Positions 25,701-41,783 of a stretch of DNA of 64,000 nucleotides are shown one piece after another. Both the position numbers and the translations under genes were made by a program. The stretch spans positions 122,000-185,999 of the forward strand of contig CAZIVL010000001.1 in assembly GCA_964543035.1 (NCBI GenBank), read 5' to 3'. The notes beneath the pieces were generated by a model. The model was not told where the DNA came from and made no database searches. It was given only the letters and a program-made list of their open reading frames with translations. Positions within the stretch are counted from its first letter, which is position 1, and every line of letters starts with the position of its first letter. This stretch comes from an uncultured Gammaproteobacteria bacterium (GTDB lineage: Bacteria > Patescibacteriota > Microgenomatia > CAZETR01 > Amesbacteraceae).

Positions 25701-25956
25701 TAACTTGCCCATTTGCATGTCCGTTTGAGTGGACAGTGTCGCCCATAACTCTACCTTTATAGCCTGCAGTTTGAATTGCAGACAGAATTTTATCGCTAGT
25801 TACCTGTTGATTTCCGGCAACTAGAGTCCCAAGGCCTGATTTAAATTCCAAGTTCACATCCTTTACACCCGGAATTGAACTTAATTCGTCTTTGATTAAC
25901 AGCTCGCAGGAAGCACAGTGCATACCATCTACTTGAAATTGAATTTTTTGGTTCAT
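22768..25956 (-). CDS. copA: Cu(I)-translocating P1B-type ATPase with two N-terminal HMA domains and a roughly 200-aa C-terminal extension
   Basis: Two MHCxSC HMA motifs, TGES, CPC ([12 protein letters not shown]), DKTGTIT and [10 protein letters not shown]. An extra TM helix plus soluble tail follows the last canonical helix. Confidence 0.85.
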
Positions 25957-26186
25957 AGTGTCTCCTTTTGAGTCGCCTCATACGGCGTGCCGGTCAAACT
26001 TGCTTGAATTTGATCCAGGCTCAAATTTGAATTCGATTCGACCGTAGCCTTACTGGTTTTTAAATCAACGCTGACTGTTTGGACCCCATTTATGGCGCCA
26101 ATTCGTTTTTCTGAAACTTTTTTGCAAGCAGTGCAAGTAAGACCTGATAATGTAAATAGTTGTGTATACATGAGTATTCCTTTCAT
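25953..26186 (-). CDS. HMA-domain copper-chaperone-like protein
   Basis: A single CTAC metal-binding motif in an HMA-sized ORF; start overlaps the upstream gene. Confidence 0.6.
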
Positions 26187-27928
26187 TAAATAACCTTTAT
26201 TTGACCCCTAGGTGCTCCCATAGCACACGTAATGCTGTAAGTACCTTTCTTGGTTGGGGTAAAGTCAAAAGCTGTAACTTTACCCTTAGTGAAGACTTCA
26301 ATTTTGGACGTCAATCCAGGAAGAGCCACACTGCCCATGCAACCCTGGCCGTCTTCTTTGGCATCGATTTCAAAACGAACCGGCTCATTGACTTTAACGG
26401 TAAATTGAGTCGGCGAAATATCCCCCCGAACGGTGTAACTTGCTGTTATAACTTGAGCATTTGCAGAACTAACCTGAGATGTTTGTGACTGATTTATAGT
26501 GTTGGTCAAAGCTGGTTGAGTATTGAAGTTGGCGGGTATTGTCGTACTTTGGTTGCTAGTTCCTTCAACAACCGTAAATGAACCGGTATACATGCCCATG
26601 ATGCAAGAGAAATTGATAGTTCCAGTCTGGGTTGGCGTAAATTCAATGATGTTTTCACCCTTTTGTAATCCTTGACGGATACCGAGTTTTTGGGAAATGA
26701 TACTGGCTGCACAGGTGTATGAATCTTCGGAGGTGATGACCCAGCGAGTTGGCAGACCCTTTCGAATCGTAAACTTATTTGGTACATAGCCTCCAGAAAC
26801 TTGTCTCATCCGCACAACTTGGACACCCTCTATGATTGATACATTAGTGTCTTTAGTACCTTCAGCACTGGCCTTACTAGTAAATGCTCCTAACACAGAC
26901 ACTGCTGGGTTTAACCCCAGTAAATTCAAACCGTTCGAAATGTTAAATATAGCCAAAAGTATGACCACTACACCTACTGTTTTGAAAAAGAGACGAGCGA
27001 CAGAGCCCTTAATTGCCGAGGTTAAACCACCAACACCCAAAAGCCCTGGCGCTGTGCCGAGAGCAAAGACGCCCATGGTTAAGGCCCCGGCCAAGGCACT
27101 GCCCGAACTAATAGCGTAAAGTTGCATGGCTTGAGTAAAGCCACAGGGTAAAAAGAAAGTTAAGGCTCCCATGATGACGGCATTCTTATTGCTGTATTCA
27201 ACTTCTGCTCGATTTTTAACACCAAAGAATCGGCTGATTCCGGTAGGAAGCGTAAAGGATATCTTTTTTAAGAATGGGAATATTTCTATGAGCTGGCTGC
27301 CCAAAAGCAACATCACGATGCCAACCGCGACAGTCATAATACCCAAGGCAGAAGAAGATAACTGGAATAATGTACCGGCATAGCCAATTACTCCACCTAA
27401 AATAAAATAGGAAACAACTCTCCCCAAATTAAAGTACAAATGTGGTGTAAATTTCTCCATACCTGTAGCGTTTGGATGTTTCTCGGCAAAGCGTGCTGCC
27501 GCTCCTAAAACCAAGCCACCGACTAATGCCATACAGGTAGAAATTCCAGCGGTAAGCCCTACAAGAAATACGGTGGGTAAACTGGAATAATTATTGGAGA
27601 CATTGCTGACTAGGTTAAACAAACCCAAGCTTCGGGCAACCAAATACAAAACAATGGCTACAAAAAAAGCAATACCAAGTTCCTTGTAATCATATGGTTT
27701 TTTGGAGAAAAGTTCACGTTTTTCAACTCCAAGCATGTATCCTGCACGCTCCACTGCTCTTTGAACTGCTTGGTCATCAAGTACATTCTCGTAATGAATA
27801 AAGGCGTGGCCTTTGTGGTGATTAACTACCGCCTTGGTTACACCAGGAACTTTTTTGAGTTCGTCTTCAATTAAGATTTCGCAAGATCGGCAGTGCATGC
27901 CTTTGATAAGAATTTTGCAGTTTTGCAT
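26186..27928 (-). CDS. Fusion protein: HMA domain, DsbD_2/CcdA-like Cys-bearing TM domain and two cupredoxin-like beta-sandwich repeats ending C-x-MGM / C-AMG
   Basis: MHCRSCE HMA; TM core with paired Cys (ISTCMA, LPCGFTQAM); C-terminal repeats FSCIMGMYTGSF and ITCAMGAPRGQ. Paralog of 54512-55779. Confidence 0.55.
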   Translation of the reverse strand: MQNCKILIKGMHCRSCEILIEDELKKVPGVTKAVVNHHKGHAFIHYENVLDDQAVQRAVERAGYMLGVEKRELFSKKPYDYKELGIAFFVAIVLYLVARSLGLFNLVSNVSNNYSSLPTVFLVGLTAGISTCMALVGGLVLGAAARFAEKHPNATGMEKFTPHLYFNLGRVVSYFILGGVIGYAGTLFQLSSSALGIMTVAVGIVMLLLGSQLIEIFPFLKKISFTLPTGISRFFGVKNRAEVEYSNKNAVIMGALTFFLPCGFTQAMQLYAISSGSALAGALTMGVFALGTAPGLLGVGGLTSAIKGSVARLFFKTVGVVVILLAIFNISNGLNLLGLNPAVSVLGAFTSKASAEGTKDTNVSIIEGVQVVRMRQVSGGYVPNKFTIRKGLPTRWVITSEDSYTCAASIISQKLGIRQGLQKGENIIEFTPTQTGTINFSCIMGMYTGSFTVVEGTSNQSTTIPANFNTQPALTNTINQSQTSQVSSANAQVITASYTVRGDISPTQFTVKVNEPVRFEIDAKEDGQGCMGSVALPGLTSKIEVFTKGKVTAFDFTPTKKGTYSITCAMGAPRGQIKVI

Positions 27929-28170: not shown

Positions 28171-29559
28171 TTAACGGGGAAAGTTCACCATAATGGTAGT
28201 AACCTTTTTAGGAGTACTTTCAATAGTAATTGTGCCCCTATGGGCTTCAATAATAGATTTACAAATAGCCAGTCCTAATCCTGATCCAAAAGTTGTCACT
28301 TTTTTGCCACCCCGGTAGAAGCGGTCAAAGACATGGGGTAAGTCGGCTTTTGAAATACCTGGTCCAGTGTTGGTAATTTCAATTAAGTCTGACGATTTGG
28401 TTCTTGATAAGGTCACAGAGATTCTGCCCTTTTCAGGTGTATATTTGACAGCATTCTCTAAAAGATTAAAAAATGCCCGAAATAGCTTTTGGCGTTTTCC
28501 GGCAATCTCAATATGCTGTTTGATTTCCTCAATTACATAGATCTGTTTCGCCTCTGCCATTTTCTTGGTGATATCGACAAGTTCTCCTAGCATTTCCGAC
28601 AGGTCAACCCTTTCAGTGTTTAAAAGTGGCTTGTCTGATTCCGACCAGGCCAAATCCAAAACATCATTAACAGTTCCGGATAAATGATCTACATCAACCA
28701 ACGTTTCGTTTAGTGTGTGCTGGTACTCTTTGGCGGTTCTGTCTTTTGAAAGTGTTACTTCAATTGAGTTTTTTAACGTTGATAAGGGTGTGCGTAGTTC
28801 ATGAGCTACATCGCCAATAAATTGCCGTTCTCGAGTAAACGAATCTGAAAGTCTAGTGAGCAGTGAGTTAAACGACGTAGATAATTCTTCTAGTTCATCG
28901 CCTGTTTTGAATATATGAATCGGTTGAGATAAATTTGACAGCGAAATCTCTTTGAGCTTTAAAGACAGTTGGGTTACGGGTTGCAACGCTTTTTTTGAAA
29001 TAATAAGGCCTCCGATAAGAGACAGTACGCTGGCTATACCAAAGATTAAGACAAGTTCTGAGGACAGCTTATTTAGCGAGTCAGTAATGACATCTGTCGG
29101 GTGACCGACTAAAACGAGGTTGTCTGTATTTTCATTTGTTGAAACCGGAAAGATTCCCACACGCATGTGAGTAGTTCCGATCGTTAGTTCAATAAATGAA
29201 GAATTGATTAGATTAGCCGATTTTTCAAAAACGTCTTTAAGTGTTTTTGTACTCGACTCAACTATTTGAGAAGAGCTTAGAATTTCCCCGTTTCTGTTGG
29301 CAATGACAATAAGCATTCCCGGCATTTCCGAAAACTCCCTACTTAGTTGTTCTTGGGGGAAAGAAGTATGCATGCCTACACTTTGTTGTGCAATTAGATC
29401 GACTATTTGCTCACCATGTTGAGTAATTTCTTGATCGGTTTGGGCTAGTAACGTTTGCTTAGTCACGACATAAAATATGCTAAATACTACTGCCGCGCTA
29501 ACAAAGAAGGTTACAAAATACCACAGTGATAATCTGAATCGAACGCTTTTCAGGTTCAT
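28171..29559 (-). CDS. Sensor histidine kinase (CusS/CopS-like)
   Basis: Two TM helices, HAMP, HisKA (AHELRTP) and HATPase (GSGLGLAI). Confidence 0.8.
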   Translation of the reverse strand: MNLKSVRFRLSLWYFVTFFVSAAVVFSIFYVVTKQTLLAQTDQEITQHGEQIVDLIAQQSVGMHTSFPQEQLSREFSEMPGMLIVIANRNGEILSSSQIVESSTKTLKDVFEKSANLINSSFIELTIGTTHMRVGIFPVSTNENTDNLVLVGHPTDVITDSLNKLSSELVLIFGIASVLSLIGGLIISKKALQPVTQLSLKLKEISLSNLSQPIHIFKTGDELEELSTSFNSLLTRLSDSFTRERQFIGDVAHELRTPLSTLKNSIEVTLSKDRTAKEYQHTLNETLVDVDHLSGTVNDVLDLAWSESDKPLLNTERVDLSEMLGELVDITKKMAEAKQIYVIEEIKQHIEIAGKRQKLFRAFFNLLENAVKYTPEKGRISVTLSRTKSSDLIEITNTGPGISKADLPHVFDRFYRGGKKVTTFGSGLGLAICKSIIEAHRGTITIESTPKKVTTIMVNFPR

Positions 29560-30233
29560 GATTTTTGCTCCGAAACTTTAAACCCTACACCATGGACTGT
29601 TTGAATTAATTTCACTTTGTCACCTCCGTCAATTTTTTTGCGCAAAGTGGTGACAAACACATCAACGACATTGCTCATACTGTCAAAGTTATAGTCCCAA
29701 ACATGTTCGGTAATCATGGTTCGGGTCACGACTTCATTTGGGTGACTCATTAATAGTTCCAGAATGGCAAATTCTTTGGGAGTGAGAGAAAGGTCTTTTC
29801 CACTTCTGACTACGGTGTGTTTAATGGGGTCAAGTTCCAAGTCAGCAACTTTTAGTGTAGGAGATGCGCTGTTGTGCGTTCTCCTAATCAAGGCCTGCAA
29901 ACGTGACTTTAATTCGATAAAAGAAAAAGGTTTGGACAAATAATCATCTGCGCCACTATCAAGTCCTTGAGATATGTTTTCAACAGTCCCCTTTGCAGTC
30001 AGCATCAATATGGGAGATTTATTCTTTTTGTTGCGCAAAGTTTTACATACCTGAATGCCGTCGACTTTTGGCAGCATGATATCTAAAATTATGCAGTCGT
30101 AGGTTTCCGATTCGGCCAAATACAGCCCTTCTTCACCATCAAAAGCTTGATCGACAGCAAATCCAGACTCCATCAGACCTTTTTTAAGAGAATCGGAAAG
30201 GCGCTTCTCGTCCTCAATAACTAGTATTCTCAT
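29556..30233 (-). CDS. OmpR-family response regulator (CusR/CopR-like)
   Basis: Receiver domain (DCIILDIMLP, LMLTAKG) plus a winged-helix domain. Confidence 0.85.
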   Translation of the reverse strand: MRILVIEDEKRLSDSLKKGLMESGFAVDQAFDGEEGLYLAESETYDCIILDIMLPKVDGIQVCKTLRNKKNKSPILMLTAKGTVENISQGLDSGADDYLSKPFSFIELKSRLQALIRRTHNSASPTLKVADLELDPIKHTVVRSGKDLSLTPKEFAILELLMSHPNEVVTRTMITEHVWDYNFDSMSNVVDVFVTTLRKKIDGGDKVKLIQTVHGVGFKVSEQKS

Positions 30234-30284: not shown

Positions 30285-31247
30285 TTATACTCCACATCCA
30301 CCATTTCGTTTTGGCGGCTCAGCCACTATTCCTTGGTCTATTAACCAACGCTTTGCTTGTTGAGAACCAGATGCCGATGAGAAGTCTTTAGACAACAGGG
30401 TTCTGGCATCAATCTGATCAAAGCTTTTACCTTCTTTGTTTTTGAAGTAAACGGCCAGATCATAGTAATTGCCGGGGAACCAGTAAGCATTAATATATTT
30501 GGAAGTATTGTACATATCCTCTTCTGAAGCACCATTTGCAGCCATTATCTCCAATATTCCCAACAGAGCCATTCCGTGATTACAATCAGGAAAAGCTGTC
30601 GAATTGTTACAGCAAGGCCTAAAAATGCTGGCAGCAACCTTTTCGACTAATTCTTCTTGAGCGGCAGTCAAAGGTATCAAGTTTCCTTTGGAGTAGTATT
30701 TCATAGCATCGCTTTTTCCAAGCGTCCAGCCACCGGTTGAAGCAAAGTTTTTTACTCCCTCAATGCCACCGTACTGAGTCATTTCCCCTTCAGTTAATAG
30801 CTTAGTTTTATTGGAAAGCCCCACTGCCCAAAAAAAGTTCAAAAGAAAATACGAATTTTCCTGATTGATAACAATGGTTTCATCCGAACCGTCAGTGAGG
30901 ATTCGCTCAAGATCTTCATAGAACGGCTTTCCAGACTTAAGGTACGCATCTTTAAACTTTTGTAAATCAATCACACCTTGATCAACCATTTTAGGACCCA
31001 ACTGGCCGTAAGAAACATTAAGGGAAATGCCCCTAGAAGGATTAATCTCCTCAAATATCGCTTGTGATTCTTGAGAAGAAGCTTGTGAACCTGTTACAAC
31101 TGTGGCTTGTGTCAATTTATCTTTCCTAAACACCGCCTTTATATCGGTAGCCTTTTTAGTTAGGGCCGGGAGGATCTGAAATAAATTAAGACCCACACTT
31201 ACAAACAAAAGCAACACAATTTTGTTTTTTAGAATTTTATTCTTCAT
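30285..31247 (-). CDS. Hypothetical secreted protein with Cys cluster PCCNNS-x7-DCNHG
   Basis: Signal anchor; a single conserved-looking Cys/His cluster that could bind metal. Confidence 0.4.
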   Translation of the reverse strand: MKNKILKNKIVLLLFVSVGLNLFQILPALTKKATDIKAVFRKDKLTQATVVTGSQASSQESQAIFEEINPSRGISLNVSYGQLGPKMVDQGVIDLQKFKDAYLKSGKPFYEDLERILTDGSDETIVINQENSYFLLNFFWAVGLSNKTKLLTEGEMTQYGGIEGVKNFASTGGWTLGKSDAMKYYSKGNLIPLTAAQEELVEKVAASIFRPCCNNSTAFPDCNHGMALLGILEIMAANGASEEDMYNTSKYINAYWFPGNYYDLAVYFKNKEGKSFDQIDARTLLSKDFSSASGSQQAKRWLIDQGIVAEPPKRNGGCGV

Positions 31248-32061
31248 GAGATTTTCCTTTGTATTTAAGTAACTTGTAGAAAATAAAAATAACTATGGCG
31301 AAAACTACTAAATCCACAATTGGGTTTTTAAAGTACTTGGCAATTTCAAAGACAACCAAACGAATTGTTTGACTGTATCCTTCCATCTGATCCATTTGAA
31401 TTTTTCCTTGATAGTTAAAATAGGCAATCAAAATTCCAGTCAAGAAGAAGATTCCTGCTGCCAACCACTTGAAAACGTCGTAAATCTTTTTGCGGTTTTT
31501 GCCGAACTTGTGTGATGCCTTGTCGTAAAAAAGAGACAGGACAAAGAGCGGCATCACGATACCTAAAACATAGGCGAATGAAACAATGGCTGCTTGTAAT
31601 AGTGTGGGTGATAGTGACGTTAAAGTCACAGCGGCAAACAATACAGGAGCACAACATGCTGAAGTCAGTCCGGACATTAGCCCTAACCCAAAGACACTTG
31701 CGGTATTAACCCTGGGATTTGCTTCCCCACCCACATGGAAGATTTGGGGAAGGTGAAATATAGGCTTGATGGTCGAAATACCCATGAGTACCATTACTAA
31801 GGCGCCCAGGTAATAAATCTGAGTATGGTACGCATCAAGTAAATAAATGGCTGAGCGAATGCCTAAAGAAATGGGTACTAAAATAAAAGCCAAACCTAAG
31901 GCAAAAATCAGAGTGTAGTACATAACTCGTTTATGGTTTTTAAAGATTGATCCCAGGTAAGATGGAAATAGAAACGTGATGCAACAGGGTGCAAATAGTG
32001 CCATAACCCCTGCTAAAAATGAGGCTGTGAGAGAGATGCCGAATAAAAAGCCTGTGTCCAT
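31237..32061 (-). CDS. CcdA/DsbD-like polytopic membrane protein with two intramembrane Cys-Cys pairs
   Basis: APCC in TM1 and SACCAP in a later helix (MerT/CcdA-like); six or more TM helices. Confidence 0.5.
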   Translation of the reverse strand: MDTGFLFGISLTASFLAGVMALFAPCCITFLFPSYLGSIFKNHKRVMYYTLIFALGLAFILVPISLGIRSAIYLLDAYHTQIYYLGALVMVLMGISTIKPIFHLPQIFHVGGEANPRVNTASVFGLGLMSGLTSACCAPVLFAAVTLTSLSPTLLQAAIVSFAYVLGIVMPLFVLSLFYDKASHKFGKNRKKIYDVFKWLAAGIFFLTGILIAYFNYQGKIQMDQMEGYSQTIRLVVFEIAKYFKNPIVDLVVFAIVIFIFYKLLKYKGKSHEE

Positions 32062-32558
32062 TAGTTTACCCTCGCTTGAATTGAAAACGATAATTTAGAA
32101 TTTTGCGGATCATTGGTAGTTACATAGACTTCACGGGTGACAAGTCCGTTAACTGGCATTGTGGCTGGTCGGTAAGTCAGGCGTACGGTGGCTGAATCGC
32201 CCGGGGCAATTTCGGTCACAAAACCGCTTTGCTTGTGCATGCCGAATTCTTTACTGGTTTCGCCTTTATAAATTATTTGTCCGGCGGTGCAACCACAGCT
32301 GGTATTGACGTTTAATATTTGTAGAGGCTTAGTGCCACCATTGGTGAGAGTAAAGTCTTGCACCTTAACATCTGAAAGCTTAAGGTCACCGACATCAAAA
32401 AATCGCTCAGAGACTTGGGCTATCGGACGGTCAGAGTCTGTTGCTGAGTAAGCTGCATTTGTAGGAGTGGGTTTTTGATTACCGCTAAACAGAAAAGCCG
32501 CTCCTACCACCATGATTATCAGAATAAATATATAAATAAGAACAGTTTTGGTTGACAT
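32061..32558 (-). CDS. DUF1573-like secreted protein (SCGCT motif)
   Basis: N-terminal anchor and a TSCGCTAG motif as in DUF1573. Confidence 0.5.
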   Translation of the reverse strand: MSTKTVLIYIFILIIMVVGAAFLFSGNQKPTPTNAAYSATDSDRPIAQVSERFFDVGDLKLSDVKVQDFTLTNGGTKPLQILNVNTSCGCTAGQIIYKGETSKEFGMHKQSGFVTEIAPGDSATVRLTYRPATMPVNGLVTREVYVTTNDPQNSKLSFSIQARVN

Positions 32559-32559
32559 A

Positions 32560-32826
32560 TTAATTCAAATACCTAAAGCTTTTGACTATTTCTTGAACGT
32601 AATAGGCACTATTGTCTCCTTTTAAGCCTAAGCTGCACTCAACAACATAATTGCGAATTAACAAATCGGATCCGTCTTTAATTTCTTGGCGAACTAGTCT
32701 AGTTAATCGAAGAGCCTCGTTACAGTTATTATCTTTCTCAATAAGTGACATGACTATGTTTAAGCCACTTTGTGCGTGTTCTAGTTTCTCTATAACCTTT
32801 TTGGTACTCGCATTTTTCAATCTCAT
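32560..32826 (-). CDS. CsoR/RcnR/CstR-family (DUF156) metal- or persulfide-sensing repressor
   Basis: Helical roughly 88-aa protein with Cys at the positions of the CsoR family's Cys ligands and Tyr/Asn in place of the usual His ligand (CstR-like). Confidence 0.55.
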   Translation of the reverse strand: MRLKNASTKKVIEKLEHAQSGLNIVMSLIEKDNNCNEALRLTRLVRQEIKDGSDLLIRNYVVECSLGLKGDNSAYYVQEIVKSFRYLN

Positions 32827-32849
32827 GAGCTAATGCTACAAAGGCAGGT

Positions 32850-32866
32850 ATTAAGATTTTATGAAG
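32850..32866 (-). promoter_or_regulatory. Conserved island motif, copy B (upstream of the CsoR-like gene)
   Basis: The 16-nt core ATTAAGATTTTATGAA shared with copies A and C; 23 nt upstream of the start at 32826. Confidence 0.4.
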
Positions 32867-32946
32867 GGGACCTTGCTTTAAACTAGGAGGAAGAGAACAA
32901 AAACAGCAACCTATTAAGTCGGGTGCGTGTACATATCTTTCAGAAA

Positions 32947-33213
32947 TCAAGTCTTAATTTTGCTAAAGTAGTTGTAAACTACCGCAAAAATGTATCCTAT
33001 AAGCCATGCGCTAGCAACAGATGTTACTAGACCAAGAACAAAAGAACCTGGGGAAAGGCTCCATTGTGAACTTAATTGCAACCCATGGAACCATGATTGT
33101 GCAATGGACATGGACAAATCTGGAAAAAAGGTAAGGGCAAGCCTACATACTACATAAAATATGCCAACTGTTACTGCAGCGGCATTAGCTGTAGCGTTTG
33201 GTAAATGTTTCAC
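32947..33213 (-). CDS. Small two-TM hypothetical membrane protein
   Basis: ORF with two hydrophobic helices. Confidence 0.35.
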   Translation of the reverse strand: MKHLPNATANAAAVTVGIFYVVCRLALTFFPDLSMSIAQSWFHGLQLSSQWSLSPGSFVLGLVTSVASAWLIGYIFAVVYNYFSKIKT

Positions 33214-33572
33214 TAATACTCACCTCCCTTGCTAAAATACTGATATGAGCCTTGGATCATCTGCTTCACACACCAACGAGCATACATATTTCCAAATAGT
33301 TTTCCAAGCCAAGTGTGTTTCTGAGGCATTTTGTAATCGATAAAGACCCGCAAACGGGATTCATTCCCTTGCGGTGTAATTTCAATGCCCATCTGATACC
33401 GACCAATAACTATCAGCTTTGGATTGCCAACTGTTTGCCAGGTCTTGGCAAGAGACGGTTCATAGCGAGTGACTACTTCATCAAGAGATAACCTTATCCC
33501 AAAGGCAGTTCCCGACATACGAATATGCGATCCCACCTTTTGGCCGTTATCCTGGTCTACCCAGGTCTCCAT
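33213..33572 (-). CDS. SRPBCC (Bet v1-like) fold protein, possibly N-terminally truncated
   Basis: Short for this fold; a C8 homopolymer sits immediately upstream of the start. Confidence 0.3.
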   Translation of the reverse strand: METWVDQDNGQKVGSHIRMSGTAFGIRLSLDEVVTRYEPSLAKTWQTVGNPKLIVIGRYQMGIEITPQGNESRLRVFIDYKMPQKHTWLGKLFGNMYARWCVKQMIQGSYQYFSKGGEY

Positions 33573-33701
33573 TTTTCCCCCCCCATCATCAATGAAGTCT
33601 TAGCCATATGCGAGGAAAAAAGTTTATGATTATCTACAAAAGCAAATAATTGTTGTGGAGAAGTTGGTATTAGTCGGTTGTCTTCGTAAAACATACTTAA
33701 G

Positions 33702-35957
33702 TTAAACCGTTACAAGATCCTGCTCTGCCCGGTTTAATAACACTGCATTCGTAGCTACTATGATTGATGAAATACTCATCAGAAGAGCTGCGAATTCAGG
33801 TCGAAGCTCAATTCCATATTTGGGGTATAGCACTCCAGCAGCAACTGGAATAGCTAATAAGTTATAAATTGACGCCCAAAAAAGATTTTGCTTCATTTTT
33901 ACAACTGTTGCTTTTGATAATCTGATGGCACGTAAAATGTCGGCCGGGTCTGAACGCATTAGTACGACTTTGGCCGTTTCTATAGCCACATCAGTTCCAG
34001 CTCCAATTGCTATGCCTATATCAGCTTGGGCTAACGCCGGGGCATCATTTACACCATCGCCAACCATGGCTACAAACTTGCCCTCCTGTTGAAGCTTTTT
34101 AACATATGAAGCTTTATCTTCTGGTAAAACTTCAGAAAATATTCTATCGATATCTAACTGCTTCCCGATCGCCTCAGCAGTCTTTTTGTTATCACCAGTA
34201 ATCATAGCTACTTCGAGTCCTAGTTCCTTCATACGAGAGATTGCTACCTTGGCATTTTCTTTTATTGGGTCGGTGGCCGCAGCAACTCCTGCAACTTTTT
34301 TGTCCACAGCGAGTATCATGATTGTCTTTCCCTCAGAAAGAAGTTTATCAATATCCTGTTGTAGCGGAGAAATATCAACGCCTGAATCATTCATTAGTTT
34401 TAATGTGCCAACGAGGATATGTTTACCGTCTACAAGTGCCTCCACGCCGTGGCCAGCTAAATTGTTAAATTTTTCAACTTTAGTGGAGATTGTTAACTCT
34501 CTAGTCTTTGCCTCTTCTAAAATGGCCAGGCTCAATGGGTGAGATGACTTTACTTCAGCTGCAGCATCAAGCTCAATTATTTGGTTCTCGTTAAATCCTT
34601 TAGCGGCTATAATGTCGGTTATCTTTGGTTTGCCTTCCGTAAGAGTCCCGGTTTTATCAAGGACAATAGCCTGTATTTTTGAAACCTGTTCAAGTGTCGG
34701 CGCATCCTTAATCAAAATATTATGCTTGGCCCCAAGACCAGTCCCCACGGCAACCGCAGTAGGCGTAGCCAACCCAAGAGCATCAGGACAGGCGATAACC
34801 ACGGTAGAAATGGCAAAGGTCAGTGCCACCATAAGCGGCTGACCCAATACAAAAAACCATATTACAAACGTCAATAGACCCCCACCCACCGCAACAATAA
34901 CTAAATACTTGGCAAATCTATCGGCAATCTTTTGTCCAGGAGCTTTAGAATTTTGGGCCGTTTCTACCATTTTGACAATTTGTGCGAGCGCCGTATCCTC
35001 ACCAACCTTTGTAGCCTTAAACTTTACCGATCCGGAGGTATTGATTGACCCACCAATTACCCTATCTCCAACGCTTTTAGAAACAGGCAGTGATTCTCCG
35101 GTCACCAACGATTCATCAATGGCTGTTTCACCCTCAATAATCTCTCCGTCAACAGGAACCTTGTCTCCAGGCTTTAAAATGAGAATATAGTCAAGTTTTA
35201 CGTCTGAGGTCGAAATTAAAGTCTCTTTATGATCTTTCCAAAGCCTGGCTTGAGGTGGGACAAGATCAAAAAGGGCTTGAAGTGCATCTGTCGTTCCACG
35301 TCTAGATTTCATTTCCATCCAGTGTCCAAAAAGTACAAAAGTGGTAAGCATGGCTGCTGCTTCATAAAACGACTCCTCACTCCCAAGGAGTGTTAAAACA
35401 ACACTAAATACGTAGGCTGCAGTAATGCCAACGGCGATTAACACCGCCATATTGAGCGTTTTCGCTTGCAGAGCTTTGTATGTGGAGAAGAGAAATATCC
35501 ATCCCGAGTAAAAATACACAGGGGTAGTTAAAAGAAACATGATCCAATTAGCCGGAATGGGAGTAGGGAGGCTTAGTCCTAGGATGTTAGTCCCCAGCGG
35601 GGAATAGGCAATAATTGGCAGTGTCAGTATAAGTGCCACAAAAAACTTATTACGGATGTCTTCCTCCATCAGTTTTGCCATTTCTCGCCCCGCCAAGCCT
35701 CCATGCTCCATGCCCATTGCCATGGTCATACTCATTTTGAATTTTTCCCAAAATGACATTTGAGCTACAGGCTTCATCACATGGTCTTTATGATCCATGG
35801 CAGCATGATCCGTCGGATTTCCTGTAGCACCTTTTACTGGGACTAATGTCATTCCACACTTAGGGCAGGTTCCAGGAGCGTCTTTTACCACGTCCGGATG
35901 CATTGGACAGGTGTATCTTGAAGCCAATTTCAAATGGGTGTGTTGTGCATGATTCAT
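33702..35957 (-). CDS. P1B-type heavy-metal ATPase with atypical CPD TM motif, His-rich N-terminus and a CPMHP...CPKCGM metal-binding domain
   Basis: TGES, IACPDALGLATP (the gat codon was checked in the DNA), DKTGTLT, GDGVNDAPAL, YN in TM7 and MSISS in TM8. N-terminal HTH...DHAAMDHKDH and YTCPMHPDV...GTCPKCGM. Confidence 0.85.
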   Translation of the reverse strand: MNHAQHTHLKLASRYTCPMHPDVVKDAPGTCPKCGMTLVPVKGATGNPTDHAAMDHKDHVMKPVAQMSFWEKFKMSMTMAMGMEHGGLAGREMAKLMEEDIRNKFFVALILTLPIIAYSPLGTNILGLSLPTPIPANWIMFLLTTPVYFYSGWIFLFSTYKALQAKTLNMAVLIAVGITAAYVFSVVLTLLGSEESFYEAAAMLTTFVLFGHWMEMKSRRGTTDALQALFDLVPPQARLWKDHKETLISTSDVKLDYILILKPGDKVPVDGEIIEGETAIDESLVTGESLPVSKSVGDRVIGGSINTSGSVKFKATKVGEDTALAQIVKMVETAQNSKAPGQKIADRFAKYLVIVAVGGGLLTFVIWFFVLGQPLMVALTFAISTVVIACPDALGLATPTAVAVGTGLGAKHNILIKDAPTLEQVSKIQAIVLDKTGTLTEGKPKITDIIAAKGFNENQIIELDAAAEVKSSHPLSLAILEEAKTRELTISTKVEKFNNLAGHGVEALVDGKHILVGTLKLMNDSGVDISPLQQDIDKLLSEGKTIMILAVDKKVAGVAAATDPIKENAKVAISRMKELGLEVAMITGDNKKTAEAIGKQLDIDRIFSEVLPEDKASYVKKLQQEGKFVAMVGDGVNDAPALAQADIGIAIGAGTDVAIETAKVVLMRSDPADILRAIRLSKATVVKMKQNLFWASIYNLLAIPVAAGVLYPKYGIELRPEFAALLMSISSIIVATNAVLLNRAEQDLVTV

Positions 35958-35969
35958 ATAAATTTAGTT

Positions 35970-36145
35970 TACTCCTCTTTTCTTTCATCTCTGGGAATCC
36001 AGTGTTCAGGATGAGCGTCAAATATTTCTTTGTCTTGGGTAGTGCAAAAATAATAATTTTTCCCCAAATAGGTTGAAACCGCTTTCATTTCATTCTTGGG
36101 TTTTTTCATCCCACAGACGATATCTTGGACAATTTCATCTTGCAT
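35970..36145 (-). CDS. YHS-domain small metal-binding protein (58 aa; below the ORF-track cutoff)
   Basis: Translated by hand: MQDEIVQDIVCGMKKPKNEMKAVSTYLGKNYYFCTTQDKEIFDAHPEHWIPRDERKEE. The CGM...YYFC YHS signature is present; a GGAGGG RBS precedes it; it lies 12 nt upstream of the ATPase start. Confidence 0.6.
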
Positions 36146-36178
36146 ATTAATCCCTCCGCTTAATGATACTAATTCTTC

Positions 36179-36194
36179 ATTAAGATTTTATGAA
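36179..36194 (-). promoter_or_regulatory. Conserved island motif, copy C (upstream of the YHS-ATPase operon)
   Basis: The same 16-nt core, 33 nt upstream of the YHS start codon. Confidence 0.4.
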
Positions 36195-36260
36195 AAACGT
36201 AACCAATGCTGAACCTACTACAATCAATAGTAGCAATATCATGTTGGAAAGGAAAGATTG

Positions 36261-36929
36261 TCACTGACTTCGAAGAGCTTTTCCGTGTTTTAGCGGCTCT
36301 GGAGTACTCACTAAGCGACTTAACGAAGGAACAAATCCAGGGACTACTTTCTTATACATACCGTATTCGTTTCCGAATCTCTCTTGTAACTCTTTCTCTT
36401 CAGCTCTGGCGAGTCCTACATATCGAAAAACGAGGATTGGAGCCATGGCTAAAGTAATCAAAGTTGGCCACTGAAGGAGAAAACCAAAAATAATCAGCAC
36501 AAAGGCTAGGTACTGAGGGTGTCTTATATATCTGTAGACACCTTTAACCGCGAGTTTCTGTTTCTTTTGCGACTCGTAGAGGACTTCCCATGCCTTACCT
36601 AGAAGCATAAGCCCGCCGATAATTAAAGTATAGCTTATAATATGAAGGAGGCTGAAATGTGGGTCACTTTTTATACCTAAAAGCGTATTGAGCAAGTGAC
36701 CATTGTTATGAGTAAAATCTAGCCCTAAACGATTACCAAAGAAAGAAGTCAGCAGGTAAATAGTTAACGGAAATCCATACATCTCTGCAAAGAGTGCGAC
36801 AATAAACGCTCCAAAGATTTTATAAGTTTTCCAATCAGTTTTCGTTCTTGGTTTAAATGCGCTTTTTATGAAATAGAGGAAAAGCACAATATTAAACAGT
36901 ACTAGAAACCAGTTACCGTAATCATTCAT
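36261..36929 (-). CDS. Isoprenylcysteine carboxyl methyltransferase / phospholipid methyltransferase family membrane protein
   Basis: GVYRYIRHPQY...EE..L...FG.EY motif pattern. Confidence 0.65.
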   Translation of the reverse strand: MNDYGNWFLVLFNIVLFLYFIKSAFKPRTKTDWKTYKIFGAFIVALFAEMYGFPLTIYLLTSFFGNRLGLDFTHNNGHLLNTLLGIKSDPHFSLLHIISYTLIIGGLMLLGKAWEVLYESQKKQKLAVKGVYRYIRHPQYLAFVLIIFGFLLQWPTLITLAMAPILVFRYVGLARAEEKELQERFGNEYGMYKKVVPGFVPSLSRLVSTPEPLKHGKALRSQ

Positions 36930-36994
36930 ATACGTGTAGTGTAACAGGGGATAGGTTAAGAAATTATGAGTTTCATCCTAGGTAAATATTAAAA

Positions 36995-37020
36995 ATCACC
37001 CTCGTGGTTTTGAGGGTGAT
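36995..37020 (-). terminator. Rho-independent terminator hairpin (9-bp stem ATCACCCTC/GAGGGTGAT, 8-nt loop) with flanking T-runs
   Basis: Read directly; lies downstream of the minus-strand gene 37106-37381 and is followed on the minus strand by TTTTTAATA. Confidence 0.45.
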
Positions 37021-37105
37021 TTTCATTGAAGTGCTACTCGTGAGTATTATGTTGTAGGACTTCTGCAGCGACTTTGACAGCAGGTCATATGGTTTCCTCC
37101 TTTCA

Positions 37106-37381
37106 TTAAGTTTCCTTACTCACCGTGTCATTTAAATGGCTACATTCCTGTATATCATTTCCATGATGTTGTTTCATCATCGTATTTATTTGTTGTTTCG
37201 TATCCAATGAAAGACTGTTCATATGATCAGCAGGACTTTTCGAGTCGTGCATCTGCGTCATATGTACCGAAGCTTCTTGTGCACTCACGGACTGCGTTTT
37301 AAGACTTACAGTTAATATTGCCACTGCAAAGAGGACTATTGCCATAATGCTGCCACTTTTTATTATTTGTTTGAGATTCAT
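37106..37381 (-). CDS. Small secreted Met/His-rich protein (candidate periplasmic Cu-binding)
   Basis: Signal peptide; HMTQMHD, ADHM and MMKQHHG clusters. Confidence 0.4.
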   Translation of the reverse strand: MNLKQIIKSGSIMAIVLFAVAILTVSLKTQSVSAQEASVHMTQMHDSKSPADHMNSLSLDTKQQINTMMKQHHGNDIQECSHLNDTVSKET

Positions 37382-37468
37382 TTTTATTCTTTCTTCTTCA
37401 GTTTTAACAACTAACTTAAGTATACTTTTAGACCTATTAAGTCTTTGTGAGTAAAAGATGAACTTTTA

Positions 37469-37675
37469 TTAATGTTTATGTTTTTCATCCTTTATCATCC
37501 AAATATGTAGCAGTGGGCAAGCAAGAACTAAACCAAGTAACACAATACTTTCCAGGGACACTTTAAAGATAACACCTGCAATTAATGCTATTGCCAGTAA
37601 TGCAACCCACATTAATAGATTATTTCTGCTGCTTAAATGAACTTTTAACTGCTCCATATAATTTGCCTGGTTCAT
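37469..37675 (-). CDS. Small two-TM protein with LACPLLHIWM...HKH motif (paralog of 27949-28131)
   Basis: Same architecture and C-terminal motif as the other copy; immediately follows the second histidine kinase. Confidence 0.5.
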   Translation of the reverse strand: MNQANYMEQLKVHLSSRNNLLMWVALLAIALIAGVIFKVSLESIVLLGLVLACPLLHIWMIKDEKHKH

Positions 37676-37736
37676 AAGATTTTTCTTTATAAAACTACTT
37701 TACTAATCATGGGCTTTAGAAATGATGAAGGAGACG

Positions 37737-38744
37737 TTAAGATATATTAATCTTTGGCAAAGATACCGCTACGAAAGTGCCTTTACCCACTTTACTCGTA
37801 ATATCAATAGTACCCTGATGGGCTTTTACGACTGCTTGAACTATAGCCAGTCCTAAACCAGAACCAAAAATTTTATCAGTTCTGGAGCCTCGGTAGAAAC
37901 GCTCAAATACGTATGGAAGATCTTCCTTGTGTATTCCCAAGCCATTATCCTTAACCTGAAATACTGCTAGGTTATTTTTAGTACGAAGGTCAATAGTAAT
38001 ACTGGCGTTATTTGGAGAAAACTTCACTGCATTATCGACAATATTCAAAAACGCTCGAAACAATTTATCTTTACGACCGGAAATTATCACATCCTTATCG
38101 ATTGAACCATTAATAATCAGATTTTTATCGAATGCTAATTTAGTGGCAACTTCTTTTACTTCTGTCACCACCTCAGATATATTAATCGTGGTCGCTCCTT
38201 TTTGGGCATCCTCAGTGTTGGACCAAGCTAAATCCAGAATGTTTTTTATAGTAGTTGAGATCCTGTTGGAGTCAGACAGGGCTTCCTCAATTGCAATTTT
38301 ATAGTCTTCTTTTGATCGATCCTTTGAGAGTGTTAACTCAAGCGATGCCCGCTGAACGGATAACGGAGTTTTAAGTTCATGAGCCACATCTCCAATGAAT
38401 TGACCTTCTCGCCTAAATGCTTCATCAAGGCGACTCAGTAGTTGATTAAATGCATGTGCCATCTCACCAATTTCGTCGTCTCGATTTATCTCGGTAATCT
38501 TCTCATTAAGGTTTTTGCTGGTTATTGTTTGTATTTTTGACGACAAATAGGTTAACCCGTCAGTCAATTTTCGAATAATAAAAAGACCCTGCAATGCCAG
38601 AACAAATACCAACAAAAAGTAGACAATATCCCCATTGGGTAGTCGTAATATATGAATACCTATATAAAAAAATGCAGTAATCGTTAATAATGAAGTTGCA
38701 TACCAAAGAATAAGTCTATTTCGAAAAGTGTTAAATCGTTTCAT
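37737..38744 (-). CDS. Sensor histidine kinase (second CusS-like paralog, short sensor loop)
   Basis: HisKA AHELKTP; HATPase GSGLGLAIV. Confidence 0.8.
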   Translation of the reverse strand: MKRFNTFRNRLILWYATSLLTITAFFYIGIHILRLPNGDIVYFLLVFVLALQGLFIIRKLTDGLTYLSSKIQTITSKNLNEKITEINRDDEIGEMAHAFNQLLSRLDEAFRREGQFIGDVAHELKTPLSVQRASLELTLSKDRSKEDYKIAIEEALSDSNRISTTIKNILDLAWSNTEDAQKGATTINISEVVTEVKEVATKLAFDKNLIINGSIDKDVIISGRKDKLFRAFLNIVDNAVKFSPNNASITIDLRTKNNLAVFQVKDNGLGIHKEDLPYVFERFYRGSRTDKIFGSGLGLAIVQAVVKAHQGTIDITSKVGKGTFVAVSLPKINIS

Positions 38745-38750
38745 GTGTAG

Positions 38751-39431
38751 TTAGGCAGACTCGCTAATCTTGTAACCTACTCCATGAACAGTATGGATGA
38801 GAGAACTACTTTTTTTCTTATCAATCTTTCGCCTAAGAGCTGAAACAAATACATCTACCACATTGCTCATACTGTCGAAGTTGTAGTCCCAGACCTGTTC
38901 GGTAATCATGGTTCTGGTAATCACCTCGTCTTTATGCCGAAGAAGTAACTCCAAAACTGAAAATTCCTTTTGGGTTAAATTGATTGGTTTTCCACCCTTA
39001 GAGACCTTATGTTTCAAAGGGTCTACTTCAAGATCGGCAACCTTTAGTACGATTGAAGTGTCTGACTTGCTGCGCCTGATTAATGCGTGCACTCGAGAAT
39101 GTAACTCAATATAAGCAAACGGTTTTGCAAGGTAGTCATCAGCTCCGCTATCCAGACCAGCCACTCTATCTTCTACCGTAGTTTTTGCTGTAAGCATTAG
39201 AACTGGAGTTTTTATGCGTTTTGCTCGAAGCTCTTTACAAATAGTTAATCCATCAATTTTGGGAAGCATGATATCAAGGATAATAAGATCGTAGTTCTCC
39301 GACTCTGCAAGGTATTGTCCCTCCTCCCCGTCATAAGCAGCATCTACTGCAAACCCATCCTCAGCAAACCCCTTTTTAATTACATTGGAAATTCGTCGAT
39401 CATCCTCAATGGCCAGTATTCTCATGACCAC
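38751..39431 (-). CDS. OmpR-family response regulator (second paralog)
   Basis: Collinear with 29556-30233 (same LDIMLPK.DG and LMLTAK motifs). Confidence 0.85.
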   Translation of the reverse strand: MVMRILAIEDDRRISNVIKKGFAEDGFAVDAAYDGEEGQYLAESENYDLIILDIMLPKIDGLTICKELRAKRIKTPVLMLTAKTTVEDRVAGLDSGADDYLAKPFAYIELHSRVHALIRRSKSDTSIVLKVADLEVDPLKHKVSKGGKPINLTQKEFSVLELLLRHKDEVITRTMITEQVWDYNFDSMSNVVDVFVSALRRKIDKKKSSSLIHTVHGVGYKISESA

Positions 39432-39566
39432 ATGGTATACCTTGAGAGATGAAGATATTATTAAGAAATCGTTTGGGGTTGATTAAGAGGATACCATCGA
39501 AACACAAAACCAATTAAGATAATTCCAAGAATTCAGACGAGAAAAACTCTTAATTTTCTTTATAAA

Positions 39567-41783
39567 TTATCTTTCTGAACCTTTAAAATCAGATAGCGTG
39601 GTAACCCTCTTGAGAGTTCTGGTATAAATCACAACTTTGGCGTCCTTCATGAGTTTTGTAGATAATTGTTCTGAAAGCTGGGTGTGTTTTTCTTGCGTTA
39701 GACGTTCTCGAATAAACTCTTTAGCATCTTCAAACGCAAGTTGTTTTGGCTCAGAACGGCCAAGCACTTCGACGATATAAATATACCCATTGGCTTCAAA
39801 TGGTGGCCCAATTTGTCCTTTGGGAATAACCTGCACTTGTTCGTGATATTGATGTTTTACGATTTCACCGACCACATTCATTTCTTCTTCAACCCACTCA
39901 GATACTTCACCACCTTTATCCTTTGTTTGCTCATCTTCAGAATACTGCTTAGCTACACTGGCAAAATCTTCACCTTTCTTAAGAGGTCCCGGCACAAGTT
40001 TTTTATACGCCTCATTTGCCTTTTCGAATGCTTTTTTGTGCTCGTCGTCTGTTTGGCTGTCAGAACTCCCAGCCCGAATAACAATTTGGCGAACTTTAGA
40101 TTTGGCCGGCATAACCAGCTCGGCTTTATTCCGATTGTAATAATCTTGCAAGTCCTTATCTTCGATTTTAATCTTTTCATCAACTTCTTCCTGTTCCAGC
40201 ATTTGGGCCAAGACTTTCAGTCGCATTTCATCTTTCCGCTCTTTCGTCTCGGTTTGCGACACCTGACTTAAACTGTCTTCATAGAGAAGCAGGCGCTCAA
40301 TGATTTTTTCAACCAGCGCCTGCTTACCCTCGGTGCCAGAATACGAAGTCAAGAAAGAAAGTGGCAGTTCCTGATATTCCTCCCAGAATTCACCTAGGGT
40401 AAACCTTTTACCGTTGACGGTAAAAAGCGTCCTGTCGGCATTGTCGGTATAGTATTTTTTTTCTGTTTCCGCCAACACTGCCGTTTGGACACTGGATTTG
40501 ACTTCTTCAAAACTCTGCTGCCTATCCGGTTGCTTGGAGATTAGCTTAACAATAGAGAAAGCATCTTTGTCAGTTATGACATCGCTTATCTGTTCTGGAT
40601 CTAACCGAAAAATGGCTTCTTCATAAGCAACATCCTGCTCTCCCTTGGTTTTGGTTTCCCCGGTCTGGGGAAGCGTTGAACTGCTTATTTCCTCATAGAC
40701 CTGACCAAAATCACTTCCCGAGCGGATTTTAGAAAGAGCTTGCTCGGCTTTTTCTTTAGCCTTTTTTTCGTCTGTGCCTTTTGGAATCCGGATCTCATGA
40801 ACCACTACCTGAGCTTTGACGAAATATTTATCCTTGTTGGCGTCATAGTAATTTCGTAGTTCCCAATCGGCTGGCACAGGAACAGCAAGTGTAGCTACGT
40901 CTTTGGTAATTGAAGCTCTGTTTTTGAGTCCAGTAATATAATTTTGAACAAACTGGTCTTCCTTCTCACTCTGAAGTTTAGTTTTTATTTCTTCACGGAC
41001 ATCAGTCAGGGTTTTATCGCCAAAATCTTTCTTGTTAGCCTCATAGTATGCACCTATATCGCCTTCGGTCACCCCAAGTTGGCCTTTGTGCATTTGGGCA
41101 TGTAATTCATCAAGATTTATTTCCTCTGTAATATGCTTCATCACGTGGGAAAATTCCTTGTCCTGGTCGGGTTTCCGGTTGGCTTGCCAGCGTTTGACGA
41201 TCTCATCGGTAATCATCTCCTGAACAATGAGTCCGTATCCTTGTGGACTCTTTAATTGTTTTCGATATTCCTCATCCTCAACAAGAGAAGCTAAGTGTTT
41301 CTCAACATCTTCGATGGTTATTCTGCCGCCGTCATAGGCAGCCACGACATTCGGTGCTGGTGGCCAGGGGGCAAAAATGTCCTCTCGGAATCTGAACACA
41401 AGAAATGCTGCGACTACTATTACACCCAAAATAATCTTCTTTTTTCGTGACAAATGAATGGTTGGTAGAGGAAAGCGGGACGGTTTGCTCTTCTCTGGCT
41501 GGTCTTCGCCCTCCATGGCATCAGGTGGCTGTACAGGATGAATTTCTTCTCGGAGAGTAACTGCTTCCGGCGGTTCAGTGACTTCTTTTTCTACAACCTT
41601 TTTCCTCGTTGGTGAAGGCTCCGGCTTTTTGGGAGCGGGTTTTTGTTTTTGGCTACCACCAGAAAAACCCAAAGATTGGCGTATATCGGTAAATATCTGG
41701 CCCCAGCCTTCGCTGGATTTGCCTTTATCGACCGTTTTCTGTTTGTGGTGGGAAGACATTGACTTTTGTTTCATTTCCTTCAA
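39567..41783 (-). CDS. PpiD/SurA-like membrane-anchored periplasmic chaperone with two parvulin-type PPIase domains and a K/P-rich disordered N-terminus
   Basis: One TM helix after a roughly 110-aa low-complexity region; two parvulin-like segments (KAQVVVHEIRI...; VRQIVIRAG...GGEVSEWV...NGYIYIVEV). Confidence 0.6.
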   Translation of the reverse strand: MKEMKQKSMSSHHKQKTVDKGKSSEGWGQIFTDIRQSLGFSGGSQKQKPAPKKPEPSPTRKKVVEKEVTEPPEAVTLREEIHPVQPPDAMEGEDQPEKSKPSRFPLPTIHLSRKKKIILGVIVVAAFLVFRFREDIFAPWPPAPNVVAAYDGGRITIEDVEKHLASLVEDEEYRKQLKSPQGYGLIVQEMITDEIVKRWQANRKPDQDKEFSHVMKHITEEINLDELHAQMHKGQLGVTEGDIGAYYEANKKDFGDKTLTDVREEIKTKLQSEKEDQFVQNYITGLKNRASITKDVATLAVPVPADWELRNYYDANKDKYFVKAQVVVHEIRIPKGTDEKKAKEKAEQALSKIRSGSDFGQVYEEISSSTLPQTGETKTKGEQDVAYEEAIFRLDPEQISDVITDKDAFSIVKLISKQPDRQQSFEEVKSSVQTAVLAETEKKYYTDNADRTLFTVNGKRFTLGEFWEEYQELPLSFLTSYSGTEGKQALVEKIIERLLLYEDSLSQVSQTETKERKDEMRLKVLAQMLEQEEVDEKIKIEDKDLQDYYNRNKAELVMPAKSKVRQIVIRAGSSDSQTDDEHKKAFEKANEAYKKLVPGPLKKGEDFASVAKQYSEDEQTKDKGGEVSEWVEEEMNVVGEIVKHQYHEQVQVIPKGQIGPPFEANGYIYIVEVLGRSEPKQLAFEDAKEFIRERLTQEKHTQLSEQLSTKLMKDAKVVIYTRTLKRVTTLSDFKGSER

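Follow-up and report, generated by a model that had tools for sequence, protein, structure and literature searches.

Among the systems closest to the pump considered here are the CopB (P1B-3) ATPases of Enterococcus hirae, Archaeoglobus fulgidus and Sphaerobacter thermophilus, which carry CPH in the sixth transmembrane helix (TM6), MSxST in TM8 and a long poly-His tract at the N-terminus. Long assumed to be Cu(II) carriers, CopB/P1B-3 pumps were later demonstrated to transport Cu(I), and the group was folded into P1B-1 (PMC7558416). In 2017 a survey of the Rhizobiales reported pumps with CPD, found in Xanthobacter autotrophicus and Nitrobacter hamburgensis and in Bradyrhizobium sp., as a "novel" P1B-3 subtype (PMC5552934). 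In Sulfolobus, copM, which specifies a TRASH protein, is cotranscribed with copA and induced by copper (PMC3595675; PMC7830388). The subject of this report is a P1B-type ATPase with CPD in TM6, and the 58 amino acid YHS protein encoded directly before it, in a 64,000-nucleotide stretch of DNA (the window; positions 122,000–185,999 of contig CAZIVL010000001.1, assembly GCA_964543035.1) from an uncultured bacterium of the Patescibacteria. The ATPase is probably a Cu(I) exporter of the CopB type, and the YHS protein an optional, copper-binding helper resembling CopM and translated just ahead of the pump.

Motifs and clade placement of the pump

The pump and YHS genes and their principal elements, by position in the window, are:

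33702–35957, minus strand: P1B-type ATPase, CopB-like 'CPD' subtype, 751 amino acids (open reading frame, Pfam and NCBIfam)
33765–33779, minus strand: M727-S-I-S-S731, copper-class motif of TM8 (LpCopA alignment, codons)
33861–33866, minus strand: Y698-N699, copper-class motif of TM7 (LpCopA alignment, codons)
34644–34658, minus strand: DKTGT phosphorylation motif, residues 434–438 (motif reading)
34782–34790, minus strand: C390-P391-D392 (TGT CCT GAT), ion-site motif of M4/TM6 (codons, LpCopA alignment)
35661–35834, minus strand: Met/His-rich cytosolic linker, residues 42–99, including MSFWEKFKMSMTMAMGMEH (composition)
35835–35915, minus strand: N-terminal HMBD, residues 15–41, YTCPMHP...CPKCGM (PF19335; aligned to LpCopA residues 39–66)
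35969–36145, minus strand: YHS/TRASH mini-protein, 58 amino acids, C11-X22-C34-X3-D38 ('D-type'; Pfam YHS, AlphaFold2)
36152–36157, minus strand: GGAGGG ribosome-binding site, 6 nucleotides before the YHS ATG (sequence reading)

The ATPase possesses HMBD (PF19335; residues 15–41, 54 bits), E1-E2_ATPase and Hydrolase domains in Pfam. It scores 575 bits against NCBIfam TIGR01511 (ATPase-IB1_Cu; cutoff 397) and 593 bits against TIGR01525 (cutoff 346), and these scores place the predicted protein within the copper branch of the P1B family. The P-type motifs are complete (TGE286, DKTGT434, SSHP471, TGDN587 and GDGVND633), and the marks of the P1B subclass – the catalytic motifs, the 'HP' dipeptide of the N-domain (SSHP471) and xPx in M4 – are all present. 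The initial annotation had read the TM6 motif as CPD, with a GAT codon, and those of TM7 (YN) and TM8 (MSISS) as copper-class-like; both readings were borne out, at TGT CCT GAT (34782–34790) and at Y698-N699 and M727-SISS731, respectively. The pump has the YN and MxxSS of P1B-1 pumps, with CPD where these carry CPC; relative to the CPH of P1B-3, Asp replaces His. At the N-terminus the annotation was right about the CPMHP...CPKCGM domain, which is the HMBD, while 'His-rich', the hallmark of CopB, proved too strong a term: residues 1–95 hold 12 Met and 8 His, in addition to the Cys4-type HMBD. The Met/His-rich linker (residues 42–99) is almost unvarying among the nearest homologues.

A neighbour-joining tree (159 sequences, 663 columns, 100 bootstraps) united the CPD and CPH pumps in one clade (98/100), with the CPH pumps monophyletic (100/100) and nested among CPD lineages. 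Column analysis found position 392 to be D in the CPD, H in the CPH and C in the CPC group, each at 100%, and revealed 15–20 residues common to the CPD and CPH groups and rare or lacking in CPC, including H85, M97, D100, H212, M216, L352, A356, G360, P671, M688 and A702. Because of this clade, the shared residues and the group-specific state of position 392, the window protein is classed as a CopB-like pump, differing from CopB at essentially one ligand position.

Besides the clade and its residues, the pump has in common with CopB YN, M-S-x-S-(S/T) and an N-terminal region rich in His and Met; some CPH pumps of Patescibacteria share even the HMBD N-terminus and an upstream D-type YHS gene (L089, L092; loci used for comparison are cited by number). 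CopB differs in having CPH rather than CPD, MSxST rather than MSISS, and the poly-His tract where the window pump has a Cys4-type HMBD. The Rhizobiales subtype is alike in its CPD, in YN(X)4P of TM7 and in its position beside the CPH pumps, all of which are found in the window pump. However, the CPD pumps of Rhizobiales and plasmids are of ~810–825 residues rather than 751, with an HMA-like N-terminal fold in place of the HMBD and MSGSS in place of MSISS.

The best match to a solved structure was to Legionella pneumophila CopA (LpCopA, a P1B-1 pump; PDB 3rfu, E=1e-167; 543.9 bits over residues 100–743), and the likeness includes the N-terminal YTCPMHP...CP.CGM segment. C390-P391-D392 was aligned with C382-P-C384, and the mapped entry, binding and exit residues of LpCopA are all kept, save for C384, which is D392 in the window pump. 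The equivalents, read from the alignment, are:

LpCopA M148: window M170
LpCopA E189: window E199
LpCopA E205: window E215
LpCopA D337: window D346
LpCopA C382: window C390
LpCopA C384: window D392
LpCopA Y688: window Y698
LpCopA N689: window N699
LpCopA M717: window M727
LpCopA S721: window S731

LpCopA differs from the window pump in its CPC motif, in the HMA domain that follows its HMBD segment and in falling within the CPC group, not the CPD/CPH clade. With TM6–TM8 scored in this way, CPD does fall outside the classical CPC, CPH and SPC classes, as the initial annotation had it, but the remainder of the ion pathway is copper-like.

Distribution of CPD and the ion at its site

CPD was found in all 120 of the nearest homologues (79–100% identity). 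A scan with one genome per GTDB species returned at least 557 relatives, and CPD was present in 79/79 full-length orthologues (60–87% identity) from the best 80 loci. Most of the latter belong to the Patescibacteria, accompanied by metagenome-assembled genomes labelled Bathyarchaeota, Micrarchaeota, Chloroflexota and Bacteroidota; the named homologues are in Woesebacteria, Daviesbacteria, Gottesmanbacteria, Levybacteria and other Microgenomates/Patescibacteria. When cluster representatives at 50% identity were searched exhaustively, the four best matches had CPD, and the top 150 contained 8 CPD, 128 CPC and 6 CPH pumps. On plasmids, the best tblastn matches, at 47–52% identity to the window protein, were pumps from Pseudomonas fluorescens (pG20), from Rhodococcus erythropolis/qingshengii and from Mycolicibacterium gilvum; the three that were read all have CPD with MSGSS, and no YHS gene is annotated next to any of these three. 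The motif, treated as atypical in the initial annotation, is on this survey common in Patescibacteria and occurs on plasmids of Pseudomonas, Rhodococcus and Mycolicibacterium as well. The pumps of the archaeal metagenome-assembled genomes (L045, L047 and L061, Bathyarchaeota; L051, Micrarchaeota) show 68–70% identity to the Patescibacterial pump, which suggests either transfer of the module between domains or mis-binning.

Since CPD is invariant in both the 120 homologues and the 79 orthologues, it is, on the strength of conservation, a selected state, and sequencing error is excluded. The notion that CPD arose as an error of sequencing or assembly, or that the pump is a decaying pseudogene, does draw on a homopolymer frameshift in the neighbouring SRPBCC gene (33577–33584). 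The pump open reading frame, by comparison, is intact with every catalytic motif in place, a change from GAT to TGT or TGC would take two substitutions, and CPD is unvarying in ~200 independent sequences; conservation has already refuted this reading and we give it virtually no credence.

Neither biochemistry of any CPD pump nor a mention of the motif beyond PMC5552934 was found in the searchable literature, a body of text outside which the key P1B classification papers lie. One further candidate mention, 'CPD' in PMC8832061, was rejected as it denotes critical point drying. The claim that CPD falls outside the described classes therefore holds in so far as it is not CPC, CPH or SPC and no biochemistry was found, but not in so far as the motif was described in 2017 and is widespread.

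Export of Cu(I) is the best-supported function predicted for the pump, because only the second Cys of the ion site differs, CPH pumps provide a precedent, the linker is Met-rich and copper genes lie alongside. Substrate and direction of transport are what we infer; the motifs, the family, the clade placement and the neighbourhood statistics are direct observations. In the proposed cycle the zinc-ribbon-like HMBD and the Met/His-rich linker would capture cytosolic Cu(I), which would enter at a platform of M170, E215 and D346, flanked in the CPD/CPH clade by H212 and M216. Within the membrane its ligands would be C390, D392, Y698, N699, M727 and S731, D392 standing where CopA has its second Cys and CopB its His. 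Release to the outside would proceed past E199, in an E1P–E2P cycle begun at D434.

The invariance of Asp392 over a large clade indicates a function for this residue within the ion site, and it is from this point that a different substrate may be argued. The Cys-to-Asp change would have retuned the site such that the pump exports something other than Cu(I) – for example Cu(II) or a borderline divalent ion (Zn, Cd, Pb, Co or Fe) – with the D-type YHS protein as a matched oxygen-ligand donor. A third specificity would be sensible in a genome that also encodes a canonical CopA with CPC and, besides, a P1B-2-like pump, and the upstream YHS protein likewise has Asp for Cys, in a subfamily seen, within a confounded sample, only with CPD or CPH pumps and never with CPC. 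We nonetheless regard a retuned site as unlikely, considering that the other copper-class residues (YN, MxxSS and the entry Met/Glu/Asp) are all kept, that a conserved linker rich in Met is what Cu(I)/Ag(I) binding typically shows, that copper genes lie nearby (those for multicopper oxidase, CsoR and cupredoxin) and that the D-type YHS sample is phylogenetically confounded. By like reasoning CPH pumps were once assigned Cu(II), and proved to carry Cu(I) (PMC7558416). More improbable still is that CPD pumps constitute a functionally distinct class of the copper family, with altered ion, valence or stoichiometry (for example Cu(II) or a harder divalent ion), for which the Cys-Cys-Asp YHS protein would be a co-adapted donor with matching ligands. 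The initial annotation had proposed an unusual specificity or a regulatory metal-delivery step; CPD, being outside the classical classes, speaks for this, but nothing else in the ion pathway is non-copper, the island is one of copper genes and the YHS gene is optional.

CPD pumps are numerous: hundreds of species of Patescibacteria have them, Pseudomonas, Rhodococcus and Mycolicibacterium carry them on resistance plasmids, and they bear the annotation 'copper-translocating' by homology alone. Given the precedent of the CPH pumps, misassigned to Cu(II) from ligand chemistry, they bear on whether the third CPx position affects selectivity.

The YHS protein and its association with CPD pumps

The small open reading frame scored 42.2 bits against Pfam YHS (PF04945; cutoff 30.3), and its AlphaFold2 model (pLDDT 87.6) matches the fold of the YHS domains of methane/toluene monooxygenase hydroxylases and of TRASH domain 2das. 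The 58 amino acid frame and its strong GGAGGG ribosome-binding site, both noted in the initial annotation, were confirmed; the stop codon of YHS and the ATG of the ATPase, on the same strand, are separated by 11 nucleotides and not 12. Nor was the gene 'overlooked', the identical protein (P0278) being already on record in NCBI and Logan.

A small, standalone YHS gene directly 5' of a copper ATPase and co-oriented with it, here at an 11-nucleotide gap, is the arrangement of copM–copA in Sulfolobus solfataricus and S. metallicus, where the TRASH/YHS gene specifies 56–71 amino acids. The archaeal systems differ from that of the Patescibacterial window in that their CopA carries CPCALGLA instead of CPD, in that the third TRASH cysteine is present where the window protein has Asp, and in their regulators, which are CopT/CopR rather than CsoR-like and two-component systems.

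The Asp is a property of a subfamily. Among the 120 profile-search matches listed, 73 of the 84 short proteins (<100 amino acids) read YYFC-xxx-D. This D-type subfamily (P0278–P0396) comprises standalone YHS proteins of 53–84 amino acids with YYFCSxxD, in 73 clusters of that search; examples are encoded at the following positions:

L009, 3776–3991: D-type YHS
L081, 4001–4192: D-type YHS
L087, 3501–3671: D-type YHS

Genomic context was read for five members, a small and phylogenetically confounded sample retrieved by similarity to the window protein; all five (5/5) lie upstream of an HMBD-type pump, which has CPD in L081, L087 and L091 and CPH in L089 and L092.

Across the species-level loci the association is loose. 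Counted in the 75 of 79 with enough upstream flank, a YHS gene lies directly upstream of the pump or is fused to it in ~6, with D-type proteins in only 2; a YHS frame occurs within 4 kb of the pump in ~17 of the 79. Direct upstream position was seen in L009, L081, L087, L095 and L096, and upstream position with one intervening gene in L094; in L094, L095 and L096, which are among the nearest relatives of the window pump, the YHS gene is of the D-type. In L095 the YHS and pump genes overlap by 4 nucleotides and a multicopper oxidase gene directly precedes them, and in L096 the genes around the pump are arranged as they are in the window (ICMT ... YHS – pump – SRPBCC – DUF5676). YHS domains are fused to the N-terminus of the pump in L058 and L064, and of the CPC pumps in L045 and L047. 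Elsewhere the gene is upstream of orthologous pumps, downstream, in several copies or missing, and the upstream place is taken by CsoR, ICMT, DUF2933-like, SRPBCC or tiny membrane peptide genes; no accessory gene exceeds ~20% occupancy. In view of the ~6/75 adjacency, these other upstream genes and the ceiling on any accessory, the YHS gene is an optional module, recurrent and confined to certain lineages, rather than a signature partner of the CPD pumps. A conserved YHS gene in homologous loci, on which the initial annotation had staked its case, is absent upstream in most and kept only in the closest sublineage; the co-occurrence it proposed between YHS genes and CPD amounts to the ~6/75 just given, and D-type proteins also precede CPH pumps (L089, L092).

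Two stricter proposals were rejected. One made YHS a partner conserved in the clade, and fails as the gene is absent upstream in ~92% of the species-level loci. The other tied the Cys-to-Asp change of YHS strictly to CPD in the pump; against it, CPH pumps are preceded by D-type YHS genes in two cases, and CPD pumps are also flanked by C-type YHS genes.

It is possible, though doubtful in our view, that the YHS protein is not a delivery chaperone at all but a cytosolic copper buffer or regulatory sensor, adjacent to the pump through membership of the same shuffled island. Its position and copy number around orthologous pumps vary, or it is absent; in L094 a foreign Mrr_cat gene parts a D-type YHS gene from the CPD pump downstream; and TRASH domains also serve as sensor modules in archaeal CopR/CopT (PMC7830388). 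On the other hand the spacing is tight (11 nucleotides here, the 4-nucleotide overlap in L095), the 5' position is kept in the closest relatives, and the N-terminal fusions (L058, L064; CPC pumps of L045, L047) argue for a direct functional link. The inserted gene of L094 (2659–3516) specifies a 285 amino acid restriction-endonuclease-like protein, and a serine recombinase is encoded at the end of that island; the two genes fit the view of a mobile module.

Under the preferred reading, that of a Cu(I) exporter with an optional helper, we infer both cotranscription and a chaperone role. The YHS protein would be made from the transcript of the pump, just ahead of it, and with C11, C34 and D38 would act as a CopM-like cytosolic accessory, either buffering copper or donating it to the pump. 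It would be optional, one among about a dozen interchangeable accessories (ICMT, DUF2933-like, DUF305, DUF5676, SRPBCC, CsoR, DUF1573 and DsbD among them).

Several points weigh against this reading. The Cu(I) selectivity of a CPD pump is assumed, carboxylates being harder ligands than thiolates; the literature search, within its scope, yielded no biochemistry. A canonical CopA is encoded 8 kb from the CPD pump in the same genome, and a second pump beside it could serve a different ion or role. The TRASH triad, C-X19-22-C-X3-C, is incomplete in the YHS protein, whose third Cys is Asp38. Most CPD pumps have no adjacent YHS gene, and therefore delivery by YHS is not obligatory. Finally, scans of 32400–39700 gave 22 promoter-like sites against 17.8 ± 5 expected and 3 terminator-like sites against 5.6 expected, neither above background; as these were uninformative, operon structure is read from spacing only.

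The CPD subclass was already noted in 2017 and is widespread, and the YHS partner, its kind already known, is unconserved across homologous loci. The residual value of the locus lies in the chemistry that the CPD site may hold and in the YHS subfamily with Cys-Cys-Asp, a small and tractable candidate chaperone.

The surrounding copper-resistance island

The window, part of a Microgenomates genome (Patescibacteria, of the candidate phyla radiation), is a typical copper/heavy-metal resistance island with a mosaic make-up. Its further features are:

22768–25956, minus strand: classical CopA with two HMA domains and CPC
26186–27928: HMA-DsbD_2-cupredoxin fusion
28171–30233: histidine kinase and response regulator
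30285–31247, minus strand: 320 amino acid Cys-rich, membrane-anchored protein with a CCNNSTAFPDCNHG motif (no Pfam or NCBIfam match)
31237–32061: DsbD_TM protein
32061–32558: DUF1573 protein
32560–32826, minus strand: candidate CsoR-like metal-sensing repressor, 88 amino acids (weak PF02583 match, E=0.012)
32947–33213, minus strand: DUF5676 protein with two transmembrane helices, a recurrent module member (PF18926, 72 bits)
33213–33694, minus strand: SRPBCC (Polyketide_cyc2-like) gene, frameshifted (homopolymer 33577–33584)
36261–36929, minus strand: ICMT/PEMT-like membrane methyltransferase (Pfam ICMT)
37106–37381 and 37469–37675: small His/Met-rich and DUF2933-like proteins
37737–39431, minus strand: second histidine kinase and OmpR-type response regulator, upstream of the module (Pfam)
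43871–45397: CDF-Band7 fusion
48402–50306, minus strand: P1B-2-like pump, 634 amino acids, with CPC and 'ADVG' in TM8

Three P1B ATPases (22768–25956, 33702–35957 and 48402–50306) are thus encoded within 28 kb, all on the minus strand, and two histidine kinase/response regulator pairs share the stretch with them. ADVG in TM8, as in the third pump, is typical of Zn/Cd pumps.

Several of the neighbours recur. Of the 79 related loci, 14 have the gene for the 320 amino acid Cys-rich protein beside the CPD pump. Where the CsoR-like gene stands in the window, L087–L093 have genes of equal size that are recorded with PF02583 and head a conserved order (CsoR – DUF1573 – x – (rhodanese) – (DUF305) – DUF5676 – YHS – pump); DUF5676 immediately precedes the D-type YHS gene in L087, L089, L091 and L092. 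The ICMT gene is found near CPD pumps in L081, L094, L096, L010, L018 and the Pseudomonas plasmid pG20 (L084). On the last, a plasmid of Pseudomonas fluorescens, the order at 120321–127471 is DUF305 – DUF2933 – ICMT – ppk2 – pump. In the few cases read, ICMT and DUF2933-like neighbours of CPD pumps cross phyla and are more consistent than YHS.

The SRPBCC gene is split into frames of 45 and 119 amino acids by a frameshift in the 8-base G/C run at 33577–33584. Intact orthologues of 164–168 amino acids lie after the pump in L095 and L096 and before it in L014; the split arose either in assembly or because the gene recently became a pseudogene.

Between the ICMT and YHS genes lies a perfect palindrome, CTACTA-N7-TAGTAG (36215–36233), which occurs once in the window. 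As an operator it is unconvincing, a match being found also in 6 of 100 shuffles.

Tiny peptides of 46–77 amino acids with a single transmembrane helix, rich in Gly, Trp and Met, with a 'WLWKKG'-like end and assigned to no family, are encoded immediately beside these pumps in a number of loci:

L011, 3768–4001: tiny single-helix peptide
L012, 3746–3946: tiny single-helix peptide
L015, 3521–3661: tiny single-helix peptide
L087, 2189–2404: tiny single-helix peptide
L089, 3692–3874: tiny single-helix peptide
L091, 3671–3877: tiny single-helix peptide

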